A stretch of 37,101 bases of DNA from Nitrospinota bacterium (GTDB taxonomy: Bacteria > Nitrospinota_A > UBA7883 > JACRGQ01). Below the pieces are notes generated by a model. The model did no database searches. It worked only from the letters and a program-made list of their open reading frames with translations, and was not told the origin of the DNA. The DNA lies in the NCBI GenBank assembly GCA_016200345.1, contig JACQEX010000022.1:1-37101 (forward strand), written 5' to 3'. Both the position numbers and the translations under genes were made by a program. Below, one piece after another: positions 1,678 to 37,101 of this stretch. Numbering within the stretch: position 1 is the first letter of the stretch; each line of letters opens with the position of its first letter.

Positions 1678-1734
1678 GCAGTAAACGACCATATACTTCC
1701 GCCATGCAAGTCAGAGCGTGCATCATTGCCACCA
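1678..1734 (-). repeat. inverted dispersed copy (about 88% identity) of a segment of the tandem array at the 3' end of the window (36966-37022)
   Basis: Reverse complement of 1678-1734 aligns with 36966-37022 (tggtggcaatgatgcacgctctgacttgcatggcggaagtatatggtcgtttactgc versus tagtggcaataatacacactctgacttggatggcggaagtacatggtcgtttactgc). Confidence 0.7.
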
Positions 1735-1736
1735 AT

Positions 1737-1787
1737 GGTAGGCACGGCAATCCTGCCGTGCAGGGCGACAGGATTGTCGCCCCTACC
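1737..1787. repeat. compound hairpin element: outer stem GGTAGG/CCTACC enclosing two perfect tetraloop hairpins (CACGGCA-ATCC-TGCCGTG and GGGCGACA-GGAT-TGTCGCCC)
   Basis: Perfect inverted repeats read directly from the sequence. The 12-mer GGTAGGCACGGC also occurs in the spacer units of the 3' tandem array. Sits between the convergent sensor and permease genes. Confidence 0.6.
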
Positions 1788-1803
1788 GGATTGGGAAAAT
1801 ACA

Positions 1804-2925: not shown

Positions 2926-4079
2926 GCCGCTTTCCTCTGCTGTTCCATTTTGTACGCGCTAAACCCGAGGGTGACCGTTGCGAAAATGAAAAGATAGGAC
3001 ATCTCCGGCCAATAGACGCTTGGGCCGAGCCCCTTTAGCATCACGTCCCTCAGGATAATTATGAAAAACTTCGACGGGGTTACGTTCGACAGAATTTGGA
3101 GGAACACCGGCATGCTTTTTATCGGAAAGACGAGCCCCGAAAGCAAAAAGGTGGGAAGTATCGAGGAGAGAACGGACATCATGAACGCCACCTGCTGTGT
3201 GTCGGCAAAAACCGATATCAACATCCCCTGGCCGAGCGCCGCCAAAAGAAAAAGTAAAATCCCGGCGTAGAGCCACAAAATTTCGCCGCGAATCGGGACG
3301 TGGAACAGGAAATAGGCCATGCAAAGCACGAAGACGGAGGATATCAGCGCGTTGAGGAGATGCGGAAGGGTTTTCCCGATGATTATCTCCACGGTGTTCA
3401 GCGGGGAGACGGTCAACTGCTCTATGGTTCCCTGCTCCTTTTCCCTCACCACGGAAAGCGCGGTGGAGACCACGGCGCTAAGCATCAGTATGAAGCCGAT
3501 GAATCCGGGGACGAGGAATTTGGGGCTTGCAAGCTCCGGGTTGTACCAAATCTTCGGCCTCAGGTCTATCGGGTCGTATCGGTCAATTCCTTTTCTTTCC
3601 ATGAAGGACGCCAATATTTTTCCCGACCAGGCCTGTATTATGCCGCCCATGTAGCCAAGCGAGATGGTGCCGGTGTTCGAGTCGGCCCCGTTTACGAGCA
3701 CCTGCACCTGCACGTTTTTGTCCGCCAGCAGGTCCTTTGAAAAGTCGCGGGGGATGACGATTACGGCGGTGGCGACGCCGGAGTTTAAAACGTCGTCCGC
3801 CTGCCTGTAGGCGCCCAGCTCGCCCGCCTGGTCGAAATAGTTGGATTGGAAGAAGCCCCTTTGGAAGTCGCGGGAGAGCGACGTTTTGTCGAGGTCGTAA
3901 AATGCGAGCTTGATGTGCTTGACGTCAAAATTTAGCGCGTAACCGATCATGAACATAAGAAAGGCGGGAATGAGCAGTAGTATGGCGAGCGAGACTTTGT
4001 CCCTTCGCACCTGTCGAAATTCCTTCGTCACCATCGGCTTGATTCTGCGAAGTGAGGCGAGGAGTCCGAAATTTGGCAT
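2922..4079 (-). CDS. ABC-2 family transporter permease (YbhS-like)
   Basis: 385-aa ORF with the same architecture as its paralogous neighbour. Its 3' end overlaps the neighbouring permease (1804-2925) and it starts 1 nt after the stop of the ATPase gene (4080-5012). Confidence 0.85.
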   Translation of the reverse strand: MPNFGLLASLRRIKPMVTKEFRQVRRDKVSLAILLLIPAFLMFMIGYALNFDVKHIKLAFYDLDKTSLSRDFQRGFFQSNYFDQAGELGAYRQADDVLNSGVATAVIVIPRDFSKDLLADKNVQVQVLVNGADSNTGTISLGYMGGIIQAWSGKILASFMERKGIDRYDPIDLRPKIWYNPELASPKFLVPGFIGFILMLSAVVSTALSVVREKEQGTIEQLTVSPLNTVEIIIGKTLPHLLNALISSVFVLCMAYFLFHVPIRGEILWLYAGILLFLLAALGQGMLISVFADTQQVAFMMSVLSSILPTFLLSGLVFPIKSMPVFLQILSNVTPSKFFIIILRDVMLKGLGPSVYWPEMSYLFIFATVTLGFSAYKMEQQRKAA

Positions 4080-19730: not shown

Positions 19731-19776
19731 GCTCGCAATGACAGTTACTTGTCATTGCGAGACCGCTTTCAGCGGT
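19731..19776. repeat. perfect 12-bp-arm palindrome CTCGCAATGACA-gttact-TGTCATTGCGAG, immediately followed by a second hairpin GACCGC-tttca-GCGGTC
   Basis: Read directly from the sequence. No adjacent T-run, so not a typical intrinsic terminator. Confidence 0.7.
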
Positions 19777-27151: not shown

Positions 27152-28048
27152 TCACTTTTTTATATAGGCGAGGAGGGATTTGGCGACGTGCTCGGCGAGT
27201 TTCACGGGGACGGCGTTTCCGATTATCTGCTCCACGTTCGTCGCGCCCCCGACAAGCTTGAAACTTTTCGGGAACGTCTGGACCATGCTTCTTTCCCTCG
27301 TGGTCAGCGGGCGGAGTCCGTGGATTTTCGCGGCGTCTCCCGGATGGCCGGGGTAGCCCTTTGGCACGGGCCTGTTTACGCCGCGCACCGTGGGGCTTGG
27401 CTCGTCCATTCCGAAAACGCCCCTTCTTGAATAGCTTCTCGGATGGCGGTAGTAATGCTCGACGCCGAGGCTCTTTCCAAAATAATCGCGCATGGTCGTC
27501 TTTTTTGTCGTCAGGCCGTCCGCGAGAAAACTTTCCAAGAATCCGTCCTTGGCGCCGACGGCTCCGATTACGAAAAGCCTTTTTCTTTTCTGCGGGACGC
27601 CGCAGTAGCTAGCGTCCAGAACTTTGGCGGTTATTCCGTAGCCGGATTTTGAAAAAACTTTTCGCGCCTCCGCGAGGGTTTTGGAGTTTAGGGCGAGCGG
27701 GACGTTTTCCATTACGAAATATTGGGGATGAACCGTGCAAACAATCTCGGCGAAGGAGATGGTGAGGTCGGCCTTGCCGCGCGCCTCGTCCCTTTTTCCG
27801 GCGGACGAGAAATCTTGGCACGGCGGGCCGCCGATGATTATTTGCGGGTTGAATTTTTTTATTTCCGACGGCGAGTTTTTGTCCGAGAGGTCGCGCAGAA
27901 AGATCGGATGTCCGTGGAAATTGGCCGCGTACAAATCCACGGCCTTGTCCCAGCCGTCGTATGCGGCGACGATTTTACAGCCGGCGTTAGCAAAGCCAAG
28001 GGAAAGTCCGCCCCCCCCGGCGAACAGGTCAACCGTCCTTAACTCCAT
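27152..28048 (-). CDS. DNA (cytosine-5)-methyltransferase, Dcm-like, with no restriction-endonuclease partner
   Basis: Motif I DLFAGGGGLSLGF, motif IV GGPPCQDFSSAGKR, motif VI ENV. 298 aa. Confidence 0.9.
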   Translation of the reverse strand: MELRTVDLFAGGGGLSLGFANAGCKIVAAYDGWDKAVDLYAANFHGHPIFLRDLSDKNSPSEIKKFNPQIIIGGPPCQDFSSAGKRDEARGKADLTISFAEIVCTVHPQYFVMENVPLALNSKTLAEARKVFSKSGYGITAKVLDASYCGVPQKRKRLFVIGAVGAKDGFLESFLADGLTTKKTTMRDYFGKSLGVEHYYRHPRSYSRRGVFGMDEPSPTVRGVNRPVPKGYPGHPGDAAKIHGLRPLTTRERSMVQTFPKSFKLVGGATNVEQIIGNAVPVKLAEHVAKSLLAYIKK

Positions 28049-31060: not shown

Positions 31061-31315
31061 TTAGTAATGGTAACGGCAGGCGATAACAACAATCTCGCCG
31101 GCTTTCACCATGTAGACCAGCCGGTGCTCCAGATTGATTCTGCGCGACCAGCAACCGGCAAGGTTGAATTTCAGCGGCTCCGGTTTTCCGGTTCCCTCGA
31201 ACGGCGTTCTTTTTACCTCCTCAAGAAGGGCGAGGATGCGGTCGGCTATTTTTCGCTCGTGGCGGATCCAACGGCGAAAGTCTTCCAACGCCGTGGGGGT
31301 GAAGGAGACGTTCAC
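31061..31315 (-). CDS. yoeB: YoeB/Txe-family type II toxin (ribosome-dependent mRNA interferase)
   Basis: 84 aa. Conserved WSRRI and EHRLVY motifs. Overlaps the antitoxin gene by 4 nt. Confidence 0.9.
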   Translation of the reverse strand: MNVSFTPTALEDFRRWIRHERKIADRILALLEEVKRTPFEGTGKPEPLKFNLAGCWSRRINLEHRLVYMVKAGEIVVIACRYHY

Positions 31316-31566
31316 AAATTAATTTTTTCCAGCGGGACGGTTTTTCCGCGTTTTGCCTCGTCTAGGGATTTTGCAAGACGTTTTGCGTTTGCGGGGTTGG
31401 AGAGCAGGTAGTCGGTCTCGATAAGGGATTCGTAGTCGTCCTGGCTCATGATGATGACGTTTTCCCCGCGCTTTCGGGTGACGACCACCGGTTCGTGGTC
31501 GCGGCAGGCCGAGTCCATGACGACCTTAAGCTTTTGTCGCGCCTTGGTGTAGCTGACAGCCTTCAT
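31312..31566 (-). CDS. yefM: YefM/Phd-family antitoxin
   Basis: Core starts MKAVSYTKARQKL with GGAGGA 5 nt upstream of the ATG at 31566. The upstream in-frame extension in the ORF track is judged spurious. Confidence 0.85.
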   Translation of the reverse strand: MKAVSYTKARQKLKVVMDSACRDHEPVVVTRKRGENVIIMSQDDYESLIETDYLLSNPANAKRLAKSLDEAKRGKTVPLEKINL

Positions 31567-31582
31567 ACTTTCCTCCAAATTA

Positions 31583-31600
31583 TGTACATAATATTGTACG
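31583..31600. promoter_or_regulatory. candidate yefM-yoeB operator TGTACATAATATTGTACG containing TGTACA core hexamers
   Basis: YefM-YoeB operators in E. coli are palindromes built on a TGTACA core. The site overlaps the likely -10 region 17 bp upstream of the antitoxin start. Confidence 0.5.
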
Positions 31601-31757
31601 CTAGCATTTATTTTTCCGCTCCGCAAGGCGGGGAAACGCAGTTGGAAATAAGCCTTGAGGTTTGCGGGGGGTGTTGATATACTCACCGCTTGTTTTTATT
31701 GTTGATAGAAAACCATTTAAAGACCGCGTGATGGTCATTTGGAAGGGGTGAGAGTTT

Positions 31758-32480: not shown

Positions 32481-34205
32481 ATGGCCGAGTTGTTTCCGCC
32501 GGATTTAATCGAGCGCGTCCGCGACTCCGTTGACATCGTCGAGCTAATCTCCTCCTACGTCACCCTTAAAAGAAGCGGCGCCAACTACATGGGGCTCTGC
32601 CCGTTCCACTCCGAAAAAAGCCCCTCTTTCAGCGTGAGCCCCGCCAAGCAGTTTTACCACTGCTTCGGGTGCGGCGAGGGGGGGAACGCCATTTCCTTCA
32701 TCATGAAACGTGAGGGGCTTTCCTTTCCGCAGGCGGTGGAGCAGTTGGCCGGGCGGGCCGGCATAACCCTTCCCAAACGATCCGAGGAGTCGCAGGAGCA
32801 CTCGAAAATTCTGGAGATAAACAAGCTCGCCGCCGAATTCTATAAATCGCAGTTTAAAAAGAACAGCCCCGCTTGGAAATACGCGGAGGAGCGCGGCCTT
32901 TCGCCGGAGACATTGGAAAAATTCCGCATCGGCTACGCGCCGGACGCGTGGGACGCCTGCCTTAAGCATCTGCTGACGAAAAAAATCACCGAGGCGGAGG
33001 TCGAGAAGGCCGGCCTCGCCAAAAAAAGCTCCGCCGGGAACCTTATTGACAGGTTTCGCGACCGGCTTATGTTTCCGATATTGGACGAGCGCGACAGGGT
33101 CGTTGCTTTCGGCGGACGCTCTTTAATAAAGGACGACAACGGCCCGAAGTATCTAAACTCGCCGGAGACGCAGGTGTACGTGAAGGGGAGGGTGCTATAC
33201 GGCCTTAACCGCGCCTCGCAAAGCATCCGCAAGAAGGACCAGGCGCTGATAGTGGAGGGGTATATGGACCTCATCGCGCTACATCAGGCGGGGGTGGAGA
33301 ACGCCGTGGCGTCCTCGGGCACCGCGTTCACCGAGTGGCAGTGCAGGCTTTTGCGAAGGCACACCCCGAATCTCGTGATGGTGTTCGACGGCGACGAGGC
33401 GGGCAAAAAGGCGGCGCAAAGGGCCACGGACGTGGCGGCCACGCTGGGGCTGAGGCCGGCGGTGGTTATGCTCCCGGCGGGCAAGGATCCGGACGACGTG
33501 ATAAAAGGGGGCGGCGCGGAGGCGTTTTTGGAGATCGTAAAAGAGGCCAAACCGTACATGACCTACCTCATCGAGCAGGCCTGCCTTAAGCACGACATGA
33601 CGACGGGCGAGGGGCGGGCCGACGCCGCGCGCTCCATGTTGCCGGAGCTTTCCCGGGTGCGGGATCCGCTGGAGCTTGCGAGTTGCATAAATTTTCTCGC
33701 CCAAAAAACGGGCATCCCTGCGGAAAAAATCGAGGCGCGGCTAAAGGGTAAACCGCCGGAGGCGCGACCCCAGGTCGGCGCCAGAACCCCCGCGCCGTTG
33801 AACGCGACGCTCAACAAGCCGAGGCCGATTAAGCCCGCCTCCCAGCACGAGAAAATCGTGATGCGCGGCTTTTTGGACCATCCGTCGGAGTTGAACGGGA
33901 AGTGGAAGGACGTGACGGCTGACGATTTTGAGACCCCGGGATTCGGCGTGATGGCGGATCATATAAGGAAGTGCCTCGCCGAAAACACGGCGTCGGCGAG
34001 CGACATGATAGACCGGCTGGAGGACGCGGAGCTTGGAAAGAGCATGAGGGCGCTTGCGATGGACGACGGACGGCGCCCCCCGGCGGGACAGTTGGACGCG
34101 TATGTGGACGACCTGCACAAGGCGGGCGAGGCGCGCCGAAAAGAGGCCGAAAGAAGGCGCGAAATAGCCCTTAAAAAAAGCGAGGCGGATAATTTGAAAA
34201 GCTAG
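32481..34205 (+). CDS. dnaG: DNA primase
   Basis: CHC2 zinc finger (CPFHSEKSPSF ... HCFGCG), TOPRIM domain (EGYMD ... DGDEAG), C-terminal helicase-interaction region. Confidence 0.95.
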   Translation: MAELFPPDLIERVRDSVDIVELISSYVTLKRSGANYMGLCPFHSEKSPSFSVSPAKQFYHCFGCGEGGNAISFIMKREGLSFPQAVEQLAGRAGITLPKRSEESQEHSKILEINKLAAEFYKSQFKKNSPAWKYAEERGLSPETLEKFRIGYAPDAWDACLKHLLTKKITEAEVEKAGLAKKSSAGNLIDRFRDRLMFPILDERDRVVAFGGRSLIKDDNGPKYLNSPETQVYVKGRVLYGLNRASQSIRKKDQALIVEGYMDLIALHQAGVENAVASSGTAFTEWQCRLLRRHTPNLVMVFDGDEAGKKAAQRATDVAATLGLRPAVVMLPAGKDPDDVIKGGGAEAFLEIVKEAKPYMTYLIEQACLKHDMTTGEGRADAARSMLPELSRVRDPLELASCINFLAQKTGIPAEKIEARLKGKPPEARPQVGARTPAPLNATLNKPRPIKPASQHEKIVMRGFLDHPSELNGKWKDVTADDFETPGFGVMADHIRKCLAENTASASDMIDRLEDAELGKSMRALAMDDGRRPPAGQLDAYVDDLHKAGEARRKEAERRREIALKKSEADNLKS

Positions 34206-34331: not shown

Positions 34332-36056
34332 ATGACCATTAAAAAGCTCCAGAAACTACCCGAGGTTCAACAGCTTCTAAAACTTGGCAAAGGCAAGGGG
34401 TTCGTAACCCACAAGGAGTTCGCCACCGCTTTTCCGCCCAACCTCTTCAATGGCGACCAGCGCGACAGCCTTTCCCGCTATTTCGTCGAGGAAAACTCCG
34501 TTCCCATCACCTCCGACGAGGAAAAGAAGCCGCATAAGGCCGCAAAGCCGGTAGTAAACTCGACCTTGGCGGACGAGGTGGAGGACGTTCCTTCGCTCTC
34601 CTCCGAGGATCCGGTCAGGATGTACCTAAAGGAGATGGGGAGCATTCCGCTTCTTACACGCGAGGGCGAGGTTTTCATCGCAAAGCGGATAGAGACCGCG
34701 CAAAACAACATTCTCGACGCGATCGTGACCTGCCCCCTGACGATGGAGGAGATCCTAAAACGCCTCGCCGGGCTGAAGGACGGAAGCATTCCGGTCCAGA
34801 CGCTCGTCAACTGGGGGGACGTGGAGGAGACGCCGCTTACAAAAATTATATCCGAGGGGAAGAGGGTGGAGCGCACCATCGGCAAACTGAACAACGCATA
34901 CCTGGACTGGCGCAAGTTCAACTCCAAACCGGCGCCGAAGAAACAGACCCCCAAGGAGGCGGCCAAGGTCGTCGAGAAAAATAAAAAGCACATAGAGGTG
35001 TTGAGGAAACGGCTGGGCGACATCAACCTCAACCAGGGGCGGTTAGACGAGATAATCGAGGCAATCGGCGTTAAAAACCGCGCGTGCCTCTCGCTGGCGC
35101 ACGAGATTGACAAAATGACCGTCTCGTTGGAGCCGCCGGCCGCCGTCAAGGGAAAGAAAAAAGGGAAGGCCGTCCACGTCGTCCACCACAAGCCGGTGAA
35201 CAAGGCGGAGGTGAAGAAAAAAATTCTCGTCGCGCGGGCGAAGTTGAAGGTGCTTGAAAAAGAGACCGGCCTTGGCGGGCCGGTTTTGGCCGCGATAAAG
35301 AGAAGGATAGACATAGGCCGGCTGACCGACAGACAGGCGAAGAAGGAGCTTGCCGAGGCGAACCTTCGCCTCGTGGTCTCCATTGCGAAAAAATACACGA
35401 ACCGCGGCTTGCAGTTTCTCGACCTGATTCAGGAGGGAAACATCGGCCTTATGAAGGCGGTTGACAAGTTCGAGTACCGCCGCGGCTACAAGTTTTCGAC
35501 CTACGCCACGTGGTGGATTCGACAGGCAATCACGAGGGCCATCGCCGACCAGGCGCGGACGATAAGGATACCGGTGCACATGATTGAGACCATCAACAAG
35601 CTCATCCGAACGGCGCGGCACCTTGTGCAGGAGCTGGGGCGCGAGCCGAAGCCGGAGGAGATAGCGCTTAAGATGGGCATGGCGGTGGAGAAGGTTCGGA
35701 AGGTTTTGAAAATCGCGGAGGAGCCGATTTCTCTCGAGACGCCGATTGGCGAGGAGGAGGATTCGCACTTAGGGGACTTTATCGAGGACAAGAAGATGCT
35801 CTCGCCGGTTGACTCGGTGATTAAGATGAATTTGAAGGAGCAGACCGCGAAGGTTCTGCAGTCGCTCGCGCCGCGCGAGGAGATGGTGCTGAGGAAACGC
35901 TTTGGAATCGGGTTGGACGCGGAGCACACGCTCGAGGAGGTCGGCCAGGATTTCGAGGTGACGAGGGAGCGCATAAGGCAGATAGAGGCGAAGGCGTTGC
36001 GGAAGCTGAGACATCCGAGCCGGAGCAAGCGGCTTCGCAGTTTCGTGGAGTCTTAG
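34332..36056 (+). CDS. rpoD: RNA polymerase sigma-70 factor RpoD
   Basis: Regions 1.2, 2 ([37 protein letters not shown]), 3 and 4 ([17 protein letters not shown]). Confidence 0.95.
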
Positions 36057-36069
36057 GATGTTTTCGGTC

Positions 36070-36101
36070 GGGTGCGGATAAATCCGCACCTACCATTTTT
36101 A
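36070..36101 (+). terminator. rho-independent terminator of rpoD (GGTGCGGAT-aaa-ATCCGCACC + TACCATTTTT)
   Basis: Perfect 9-bp GC-rich stem followed by a T-rich tract 14 nt after the rpoD stop. Confidence 0.7.
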
Positions 36102-36229: not shown

Positions 36230-36306
36230 GGGCCTATAGCTCAGTTGGTTAGAGCCCCCGGCTCATAACCGGGTTGTCCTAGGTTCAAGTCCTAGTGGGC
36301 CCACCA
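36230..36306 (+). tRNA. tRNA with CAT anticodon (elongator Met or lysidine-type Ile2; G1-C72 pair argues against initiator)
   Basis: 77-nt cloverleaf folded by hand: acceptor GGGCCTA/TGGGCCC, D-arm GCTC-AGTTGGTTA-GAGC, anticodon arm CCCGG-CTCATAA-CCGGG, T-arm CTAGG-TTCAAGT-CCTAG, CCA encoded. Confidence 0.85.
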
Positions 36307-36363
36307 AAATAAACAAAACTCCCCATTCGGGAGAGTTTTGCTTATTTTTGATGTAGGCCCGCT
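36299..36363 (+). repeat. 65-bp direct repeat copy 1, spanning the last 8 nt of the tRNA plus its terminator
   Basis: Identical at every base to 36498-36562. Confidence 0.9.
36315..36349 (+). terminator. tRNA intrinsic terminator (AAAACTCCCC-attc-GGGAGAGTTTT + GCTTATTTTT)
   Basis: Hairpin plus T-run 9 nt after the tRNA CCA end. Duplicated within the second 65-bp repeat. Confidence 0.7.
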
Positions 36364-36497
36364 AGGACTTGAAGGCGAGCCGACGGCCCGACGAGTAGGA
36401 GGGCATTCCGCACGTGATGTGCGGAATAGTCGGCGAGGTGAGCCTACGCAGGAGGGAACACGATGTTCCCGACGTAGTAGGCATTCCACAGTCTTTC

Positions 36498-36562
36498 GCC
36501 CACCAAAATAAACAAAACTCCCCATTCGGGAGAGTTTTGCTTATTTTTGATGTAGGCCCGCT
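36498..36562 (+). repeat. 65-bp direct repeat copy 2
   Basis: Perfect copy. The 134 bp between the copies contains two perfect hairpins (ATTCCGCAC-gtgat-GTGCGGAAT and GGGAACA-cga-TGTTCCC). Confidence 0.9.
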
Positions 36563-36573
36563 TTTGGCCGGTA

Positions 36574-37101
36574 CGCACCAAGTACACGCTAAAGCGTGTA
36601 CCCACCGGAAAAAGCAATTGGGTGGGTGCGGCCTTTTTTTTCTCCCGGTAGGCACGGCCTTTAGGCTGTGCTACATTGGCGCTTTCGCGGCAACGTACAG
36701 GTTAAAACCTGTACCCACCGGAGAATGCAATTTGGTTTGGTAGGCACGGGCTTTTTTTTCTCCCGGTAGGCACGGCCTTTAGGCTGTGCTACATTGCCGC
36801 TTTCGCGGCAACGTACAGGTTAAAACCTGTACCCACCGGAAAAAGCAATTTGGTGGGTGCGGGTTTTAACCTGTACACCTTCGCATTGGCGCTCCGCGGC
36901 AATGTACACACTAAAGTGTGTACCCACCGGAAAAAGCAATTTGGTGGGTGCGGGCTTCTCGGCAACCATCCTCTAGTGGCAATAATACACACTCTGACTT
37001 GGATGGCGGAAGTACATGGTCGTTTACTGCGGCCTGCACTCCTTCGCATTGGCGCTCCGCACAAATTAAAACCTAAAGCGTGTAACCACCCGAAAAAGCA
37101 A
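36574..37101 (+). repeat. tandem array (at least 5 units, periods 113/118/91/162 bp, truncated by the window end) of a composite multi-hairpin element; REP/BIME-like or a tandem small-RNA gene array
   Basis: Each unit has a 20-bp perfect palindrome with a TAAA loop whose stem covaries between copies (GTACACGC / GTACAGGT / GTACACAC), then CCCACC...GGTGGG and a T8 run. The spacer carries hairpins GCACGGCC-ttta-GGCTGTGC and TTGCCGC-tttc-GCGGCAA and a TGcTACATT extended -10-like motif. Confidence 0.8.

Follow-up and report, generated by a model that had tools for sequence, protein, structure and literature searches.

The array of hairpins that closes the DNA analysed here (the window, a whole stretch of 37,101 bp) is most probably a BIME-like cluster of GTAG-type REPs, a reading to which a probability of about 0.8 can be given. 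It rests on the tagged architecture of the monomers, their alternating orientation, the intergenic dispersal of further copies, the occurrence of similar tandems in relatives, and stems that vary in sequence yet stay paired. A REP/BIME-type cluster had been named in the original prediction as the conservative alternative to a string of independently transcribed RNAs, and the tagged monomers, their orientation and the dispersed copies turn the balance in its favour.

The array extends from 36566 to the contig end (37101), and the gene order leading up to it is dnaG, rpoD, tRNA-Met(CAT) (Table 1). It consists of five head-to-tail units of tetraloop hairpins, so that the hairpin-dense tandem array first described downstream of the tRNA is recovered by independent means: TRF reports positions 36582-36862 with a period of 118, 2.4 copies, 86% matches and a score of 442. 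A repeat finder delimits a 49-63-nt core in 4-5 copies, at spacings of 113, 118, 91 and 162 nt, and recognises the two near-identical full units as a 118-nt pair of 93% identity. The array does reach the last base, as had been stated, but what was taken for the edge of the window is the end of the contig itself. Since the 37,101-bp stretch is the entire contig of a Nitrospinae MAG, the array lies at an assembly break, and because it terminates the assembly, its copy number and the 'recombined' appearance of its distal units may be partly assembly-shaped. The remainder of the contig is ordinary housekeeping (ABC and RND efflux, riboflavin genes, PPDK, glyS, accA, kdtA), and no transposase was found among its proteins with Pfam.

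Table 1. Coordinates and composition of the array and of related features in the window (CM matches with their strand in brackets).
Feature	Position	Strand	Description
Dispersed head-head dimer	1737..1789	.	GGTAGG-GCACGGCA/TGCCGTGC-GGGCGACA/TGTCGCCC-CCTACCGG; CM 1730-1767(+), 1757-1794(-)
dnaG	32481-34205		
rpoD	34332-36056		
Dispersed single REP	36071..36094	-	Just past the rpoD stop; GGTGCGGA-taaa-TCCGCACC, then TACC; CM 36066-36101(-), E = 0.019; absent from the CM training set
tRNA-Met(CAT)	36230-36306		
65-bp perfect direct repeat	36299-36363 and 36498-36562		tRNA-Met 3' end and its terminator hairpin (repeat finder)
Structured insert, 134 nt	36364-36497		Begins with the tRNA T-arm in reverse complement
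Unit E1, right-hand REP only	36582..36608	-	Hairpin GTACACGC-taaa-GCGTGTAC, then CCACCGG; minus-strand tag GTGG; CM 36576-36613(-), 46 bits
Linker 1	36609..36646	+	AAAAAGCAATT, half-REP head GGTGGGTGCGGCC (36621-36633), T8 (36634-36641), CTCCC
Unit E2, 73-nt head-head REP dimer	36647..36721	.	GGTAG, hairpin GCACGGCC/GGCTGTGC, small hairpin GCGC-tttc-GCGGC, hairpin GTACAGGT/ACCTGTAC, CCACC(GG); CM 36640-36677(+), 36689-36726(-)
Linker 2, near copy of linker 1	36722..36764	+	Half-REP head GGTAGGCACGGGC (36739-36751), T8 (36752-36759)
Unit E3, 73-nt head-head REP dimer	36765..36839	.	Nearly identical to E2; CM 36758-36795(+), 36807-36844(-)
E3-E4 spacer			Only 14 nt, GGAAAAAGCAATTT
Unit E4, 77-nt head-head REP dimer	36852..36930	.	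GGTGG, imperfect hairpin GTGCGGGT/ACCTGTAC, small hairpin, hairpin GTACACAC/GTGTGTAC, CCACC(GG); CM 36845-36882(+), 36898-36935(-)
Mosaic module, 55-57 nt	36976..37030	-	Inverted copy at 1678-1732; blastn 91% over 55 nt, E = 2e-14
Unit E5	37033..37101	.	Degenerate, 5'-truncated E4-like copy with broken palindrome (37066-37090); reaches the contig end

Other classes of array were considered and rejected. In a CRISPR array the 'spacers' should not be repeated as they are in the 118-nt units, and the period here is 91-162 nt; an integron attC array was dismissed as there are no cassettes, and a series of integration remnants at the tRNA since the ends of the units match the REP family and not the tRNA. 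A phage/plasmid BLAST of 36300-37101 gave no match. As a minor point, the mosaic module adjoins a REP dimer in both of its copies, the one at 1678-1732 standing directly after the stop of a HATPase_c_2 gene (174-1676), and the 57-nt module has no match in viral contigs.

REPs are elements of 20-40 bp, with a stem of 5-13 bp and a loop of 2-20 nt, and there are usually more than 100 of them per genome. The recurring monomer of the family described here is a stem of 8 bp with a loop of 4 nt, immediately preceded on its 5' side by a GT[AG]G tag. This placement of the tag holds for 29 family copies, GTGG being commoner than GTAG, and among the 4-mers that precede 8/4/8 hairpins in the 126 kb examined GTGG is the commonest (23/414) and GTAG joint third (9/414). 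A CM search with the monomer finds ten copies at three loci of the window and nothing else, namely two at 1730-1794, one at 36066-36101 and seven in the array, where between 36576 and 36935 they alternate in strand (-,+,-,+,-,+,-). Monomers are paired with their tags outward (GGTAG...CCACC) around one small GC hairpin, giving head-head dimers of 73-77 nt that occupy 36647-36719 in E2, 36765-36837 in E3 and 36852-36928 in E4. Linkers lie between the dimers; the first two each measure ~40 nt and join a half-REP head to T8-CTCCC. In the family as a whole, dimers range from 68 to 146 nt, their spacer holds one to four small hairpins, and T-rich-CCCGGT[AG]G on the left is mirrored by C[CT]ACCGGG-A-rich on the right.

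The stem of the monomer is conserved as a structure rather than as a sequence, as originally proposed. More specifically, the 20-nt palindrome has the form GTAC-N4-TAAA-N4-GTAC and was said to remain perfectly complementary while its stem differs between copies; this is true of four copies, which carry three different N4 pairs (arms GTACACGC/GCGTGTAC, GTACAGGT/ACCTGTAC twice, and GTACACAC/GTGTGTAC), but not of the fifth, which has lost its 5' arm and forms no hairpin. Double-sided changes affect 4/8 stem pairs among the palindrome copies of the array, and 8/8 across 25 family copies that had been pre-selected as hairpins. A second search was free of that selection, as its pattern did not demand pairing: GTAC, the loop and GTACCCACCGG were fixed, and four inner stem bases per side were left free. 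It returned 13 metagenome contigs, comprising 12 family loci from two metagenomes and one chance match in coding DNA; 11 of the 13 come from the sample of L004, a relative with 84% RpoD identity. Seven of the 12 family loci have fully complementary free bases and the other five a single tag-strand G.T, and in the chance match these bases are non-complementary, which constitutes unbiased evidence that the stem is kept while its sequence drifts. The GGT[AG]G...C[CT]ACC dimers at these loci measure 68, 91, 97, 122 or 145-146 nt. The loci sit in gaps between long ORFs, five of the 12 at <=170 nt from a contig end. The exact linker core CCACCGGARAAWGCAATTKGGT, on the other hand, has no match in metagenome or viral collections, and its single match in genomes is a chance one in coding DNA.

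The same features bear on the reading preferred in the original prediction, i.e. that the units are tandem genes for small structured RNAs of ~75 nt, each transcribed independently from its own promoter and ended by its own T8 terminator. A covarying stem and a very stable fold (z = -11.1 against shuffles for the plus strand of the array region) would suit such genes. The minus strand folds nearly as strongly by the same measure (z = -8.7), strong folding of both strands being what is expected for DNA palindromes, and conservation of structure over sequence is found in REP families too, and is thus alone no argument for an RNA gene. The elements moreover have two-fold symmetry and are met in either orientation; copies differ in how many internal hairpins they hold, and some are truncated. 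The wobble pairs point the same way. They lie on the tag strand of the monomer in eight copies, against one with the opposite polarity, so that the G.T pairs of the two REPs of a dimer fall on opposite strands, an arrangement more in keeping with monomers being recognised one at a time than with a single transcript for each unit. Imperfect stems (in the window and in L009, L010, L011, L016, L017, L019 and L024) nearly always show a tag-strand G.T, usually at stem position 5, and as many wobble copies share this position, they may descend from one variant; a tag-strand G.T is an A.C on the other strand, which hints at which strand is read.

The transcription signals invoked for such genes fare no better. 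Two T8 runs do exist, but a run in every unit had been described, and they are confined to two linkers (2/5 units), where T8-CTCCC lies 5' of the E2 and E3 tags, preceded by GGCC or GGGC and with no stem immediately upstream. Since the T8 does not follow a stem, it is not a terminator. It corresponds to the T-rich left flank found family-wide before the GT[AG]G tag (TTTTCCCGGTGG in relatives) and copied along with the dimers; where a single copy follows a gene, its T-run is the terminator tail of that gene. A stack of intrinsic terminators was likewise rejected, as the T-runs stand before and not after the stems on both strands. The extended -10-like motif TGnTACATT, assigned to each full unit, is present in two units, 75-83 nt upstream of the T8, but it lies inside a hairpin: the -10-like TGCTACATT is made up of CTAC and the 3' arm of the first hairpin, and it has no counterpart in the family members of relatives. 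A consensus scan of the units found neither a sigma-70-like promoter nor a terminator-like site, and places the array behind two copies of the tRNA-Met terminator. In the covariance search against Rfam 15 only the tRNA passes the gathering threshold, the array giving sub-threshold chance matches to miRNA and s2m. Taken with the symmetry of the elements, these results make independently transcribed RNA genes highly improbable.

Copies outside the array are extragenic as well. Within the window, members of the family are found after tRNA-Met, after the rpoD stop and, as a dimer, between convergent genes (gap 1677-1803), and a whole-window hairpin scan shows GGTAGG or CCTACC at the foot of the dispersed hairpins. 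In relatives, a protein adjoining an element in L011 has homologues that are all Nitrospinae-named, which places one locus in the Nitrospinae. One of these homologues, MBI3795226 (HY280_10955), belongs to the same accession run as the RpoD of the window (MBI3793587), and the numbering suggests that both come from the same MAG. The Logan contig L024 encodes a protein identical to MBI3795226 and is probably from the organism of the window; it ends in a tagged hairpin (36.8 bits, CM), with the REP directly behind an intrinsic terminator. A sister subfamily is seen in L026 (from the MAG that carries L005), where a 167-bp unit is arranged in tandem from 3160 to 3496, up to the contig end; here the T-run of the upstream gene's terminator, its flank and a GGTAGGTGCGAC.../...GCACCTACC dimer have all been duplicated. 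No family member was detected by CM in the ~20-kb rpoD flanks of four relatives, so that density is not high everywhere and the distribution among relatives is patchy. Spurious ORFs over other copies were sought with a six-frame peptide search, which gave no match.

A second palindromic family, CTCGCAATGACA...TGTCATTGCGAG, was observed along the way at 19732-19761 of the window, at ~6005-6045 of L005 and at ~1090-1110 and ~1425-1445 of L026. In L026 it flanks a short ORF that, by eye only, resembles a GIY-YIG nuclease fragment.

The distribution of copies allows the origin of the elements to be weighed. A MITE/PATE-type family of inverted repeats, mobilised by a non-RAYT transposase and nested and duplicated at this site, would explain the terminal inverted repeats of ~12-16 nt on composite elements (TTTYCCCGGTRGGTAC / GTACCYACCGGGRAAA) and the discrete size classes between 68 and 146 nt, and would agree with the lack so far of a RAYT among the 30 window proteins and in a motif scan of the loci. 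Such an origin is unlikely, however, given that no direct target-site duplication was seen at the ends of 12 copies, that lone monomers exist (36071-36094 and the end of L024), that what recurs is the monomer of tag and hairpin and not the whole dimer, and that the hallmark of REPs is such a GT[AG]G tag at the stem foot (PMC3733652).

It can also be asked whether the tandem order is real. A short-read assembler that loops through a dispersed repeat could produce an artificial array, and this array ends its contig, the contigs of several relatives also break in these repeats, and the distal units look recombined. A largely artefactual tandem arrangement is nonetheless extremely unlikely: the units differ from each other consistently (three stem variants and two linker variants), similar tandems and clusters lie inside longer contigs of relatives (a 113-bp tandem at 6078-6338 of L011 and a 400-bp cluster in L017), and the elements themselves are independently confirmed. 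The repeat family does explain contig ends, both here and in several related Nitrospinae contigs, and ORFs called across such arrays (e.g. 36414-36743) are artefacts.

The GTAG-type REP cluster can be compared with systems described previously. GTAG-type REPs are palindromes of 20-40 bp with an unpaired tag, which form head-head dimers with spacers of 20-100 bp that may contain stem-loops (Di Nocera et al. 2013, PMC3733652). The present family shares with them the extragenic 20-nt stem-loop flanked on one side by an unpaired GT[AG]G tag, the tags-outward dimers with small stem-loops in the spacer, the clusters made of dimers tandemly reiterated with flanking DNA, and the stem differences between family subsets. 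It differs in that most tags are GTGG instead of GTAG, in spacers with up to four hairpins, and in its occurrence in Nitrospinae/Nitrospinota, a name absent from the text of that survey. The BIMEs of E. coli and Xanthomonas (Nunvar et al. 2010, PMC2817692) have the same regular spacing and alternating REP orientation, and both they and the present array contain conserved inter-REP motifs and are placed after gene ends; the array has no sequence similarity to them, and its unit is a head-head dimer plus a ~40-nt linker with a T-run. The REPINs of Pseudomonas fluorescens, cited in PMC2817692, are REP doublets that form hairpins, the R0 family measuring 89 bp. They resemble the present elements in being dispersed units of ~70-150 nt with two inverted REPs at the termini, whereas the doublet found here encloses separate small hairpins and not one long hairpin, and no RAYT was found in the 30 window proteins or in the motif scan of the loci.

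With regard to mechanism, one dimer together with its flank, including the T-run, has probably been repeated head to tail, with partial erosion afterwards. A RAYT (TnpA-REP, an HUH Y1 enzyme) whose gene lies in another part of the genome would, if the REP literature is a guide, recognise the hairpin and tag as single-stranded DNA, and this recognition could both spread the elements and select for their structure; conservation of structure over sequence would be expected under such recognition. Growth of the cluster itself may be due to the RAYT, to slippage, or to unequal recombination among its repeats, and any effect in the cell (3'-end stabilisation, protein binding) would be incidental. 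A RAYT gene (TnpA-REP, PF01797-like) flanked by two inverted REPs would be expected in the genome. The adjacent RAYT gene that the original prediction had linked with a REP cluster did not appear: Pfam finds no RAYT/Y1_Tnp among the 30 window proteins, a search that covered ~1% of the genome, and a crude motif scan finds no HUH motif in the loci examined.

Two further accounts can be named. The dimers, with their 3-6 hairpins, could go beyond selfish DNA and be lineage-specific structured-RNA modules that are transcribed from gene 3' ends or on their own, the array then being a multi-copy producer locus; alternatively, they could spread RAYT-free, through an unknown mechanism directed at sites immediately downstream of intrinsic terminators. 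Both are very unlikely. As a REP cluster the array opens no new biological question, and its value lies mainly in annotation and assembly; it places on record GTAG/GTGG-type REPs with multi-hairpin dimers in an under-sampled phylum for which the literature searched contains no mention of them.

The site that precedes the array deserves attention in its own right. The copies of the 65-bp repeat bracket the 134-nt insert (Table 1), which has no match in Rfam or ARAGORN. A homologous insert in L005 (5642-5860) closes with a repeat of the tRNA's final 21 nt, and for the pair RNAalifold predicts 35 pairs, 16/35 of them compensated. Possible identities for the insert are a miniature integrative element that lacks an integrase and an unknown small RNA; at this end of the contig it arguably merits more curiosity than the array does. 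The rpoD-tRNA-Met arrangement is kept in relatives L002-L006 and L020-L023, where the array is absent. What follows the tRNA varies: a RelE/MqsA-like toxin-antitoxin cassette with ~68-bp direct repeats around it lies 3' of tRNA-Met in L002 (11841-12665) and also in L003 and L004, the contig of L006 halts exactly at the CCA of the tRNA, and in the more distant L020/L022 (11840-11900) nothing is inserted. This variability among relatives suggests that the position directly 3' of tRNA-Met is an integration hotspot.

At 27152-28048 (-) the window encodes a C-5 cytosine DNA methylase, and the window proteins scanned in its neighbourhood gave no match to a restriction enzyme (Pfam, E <= 1e-5). An ORF for a Phd/YefM-type antitoxin is located at 31312-31686 (-), upstream of the S21-yqeY-dnaG-rpoD block.
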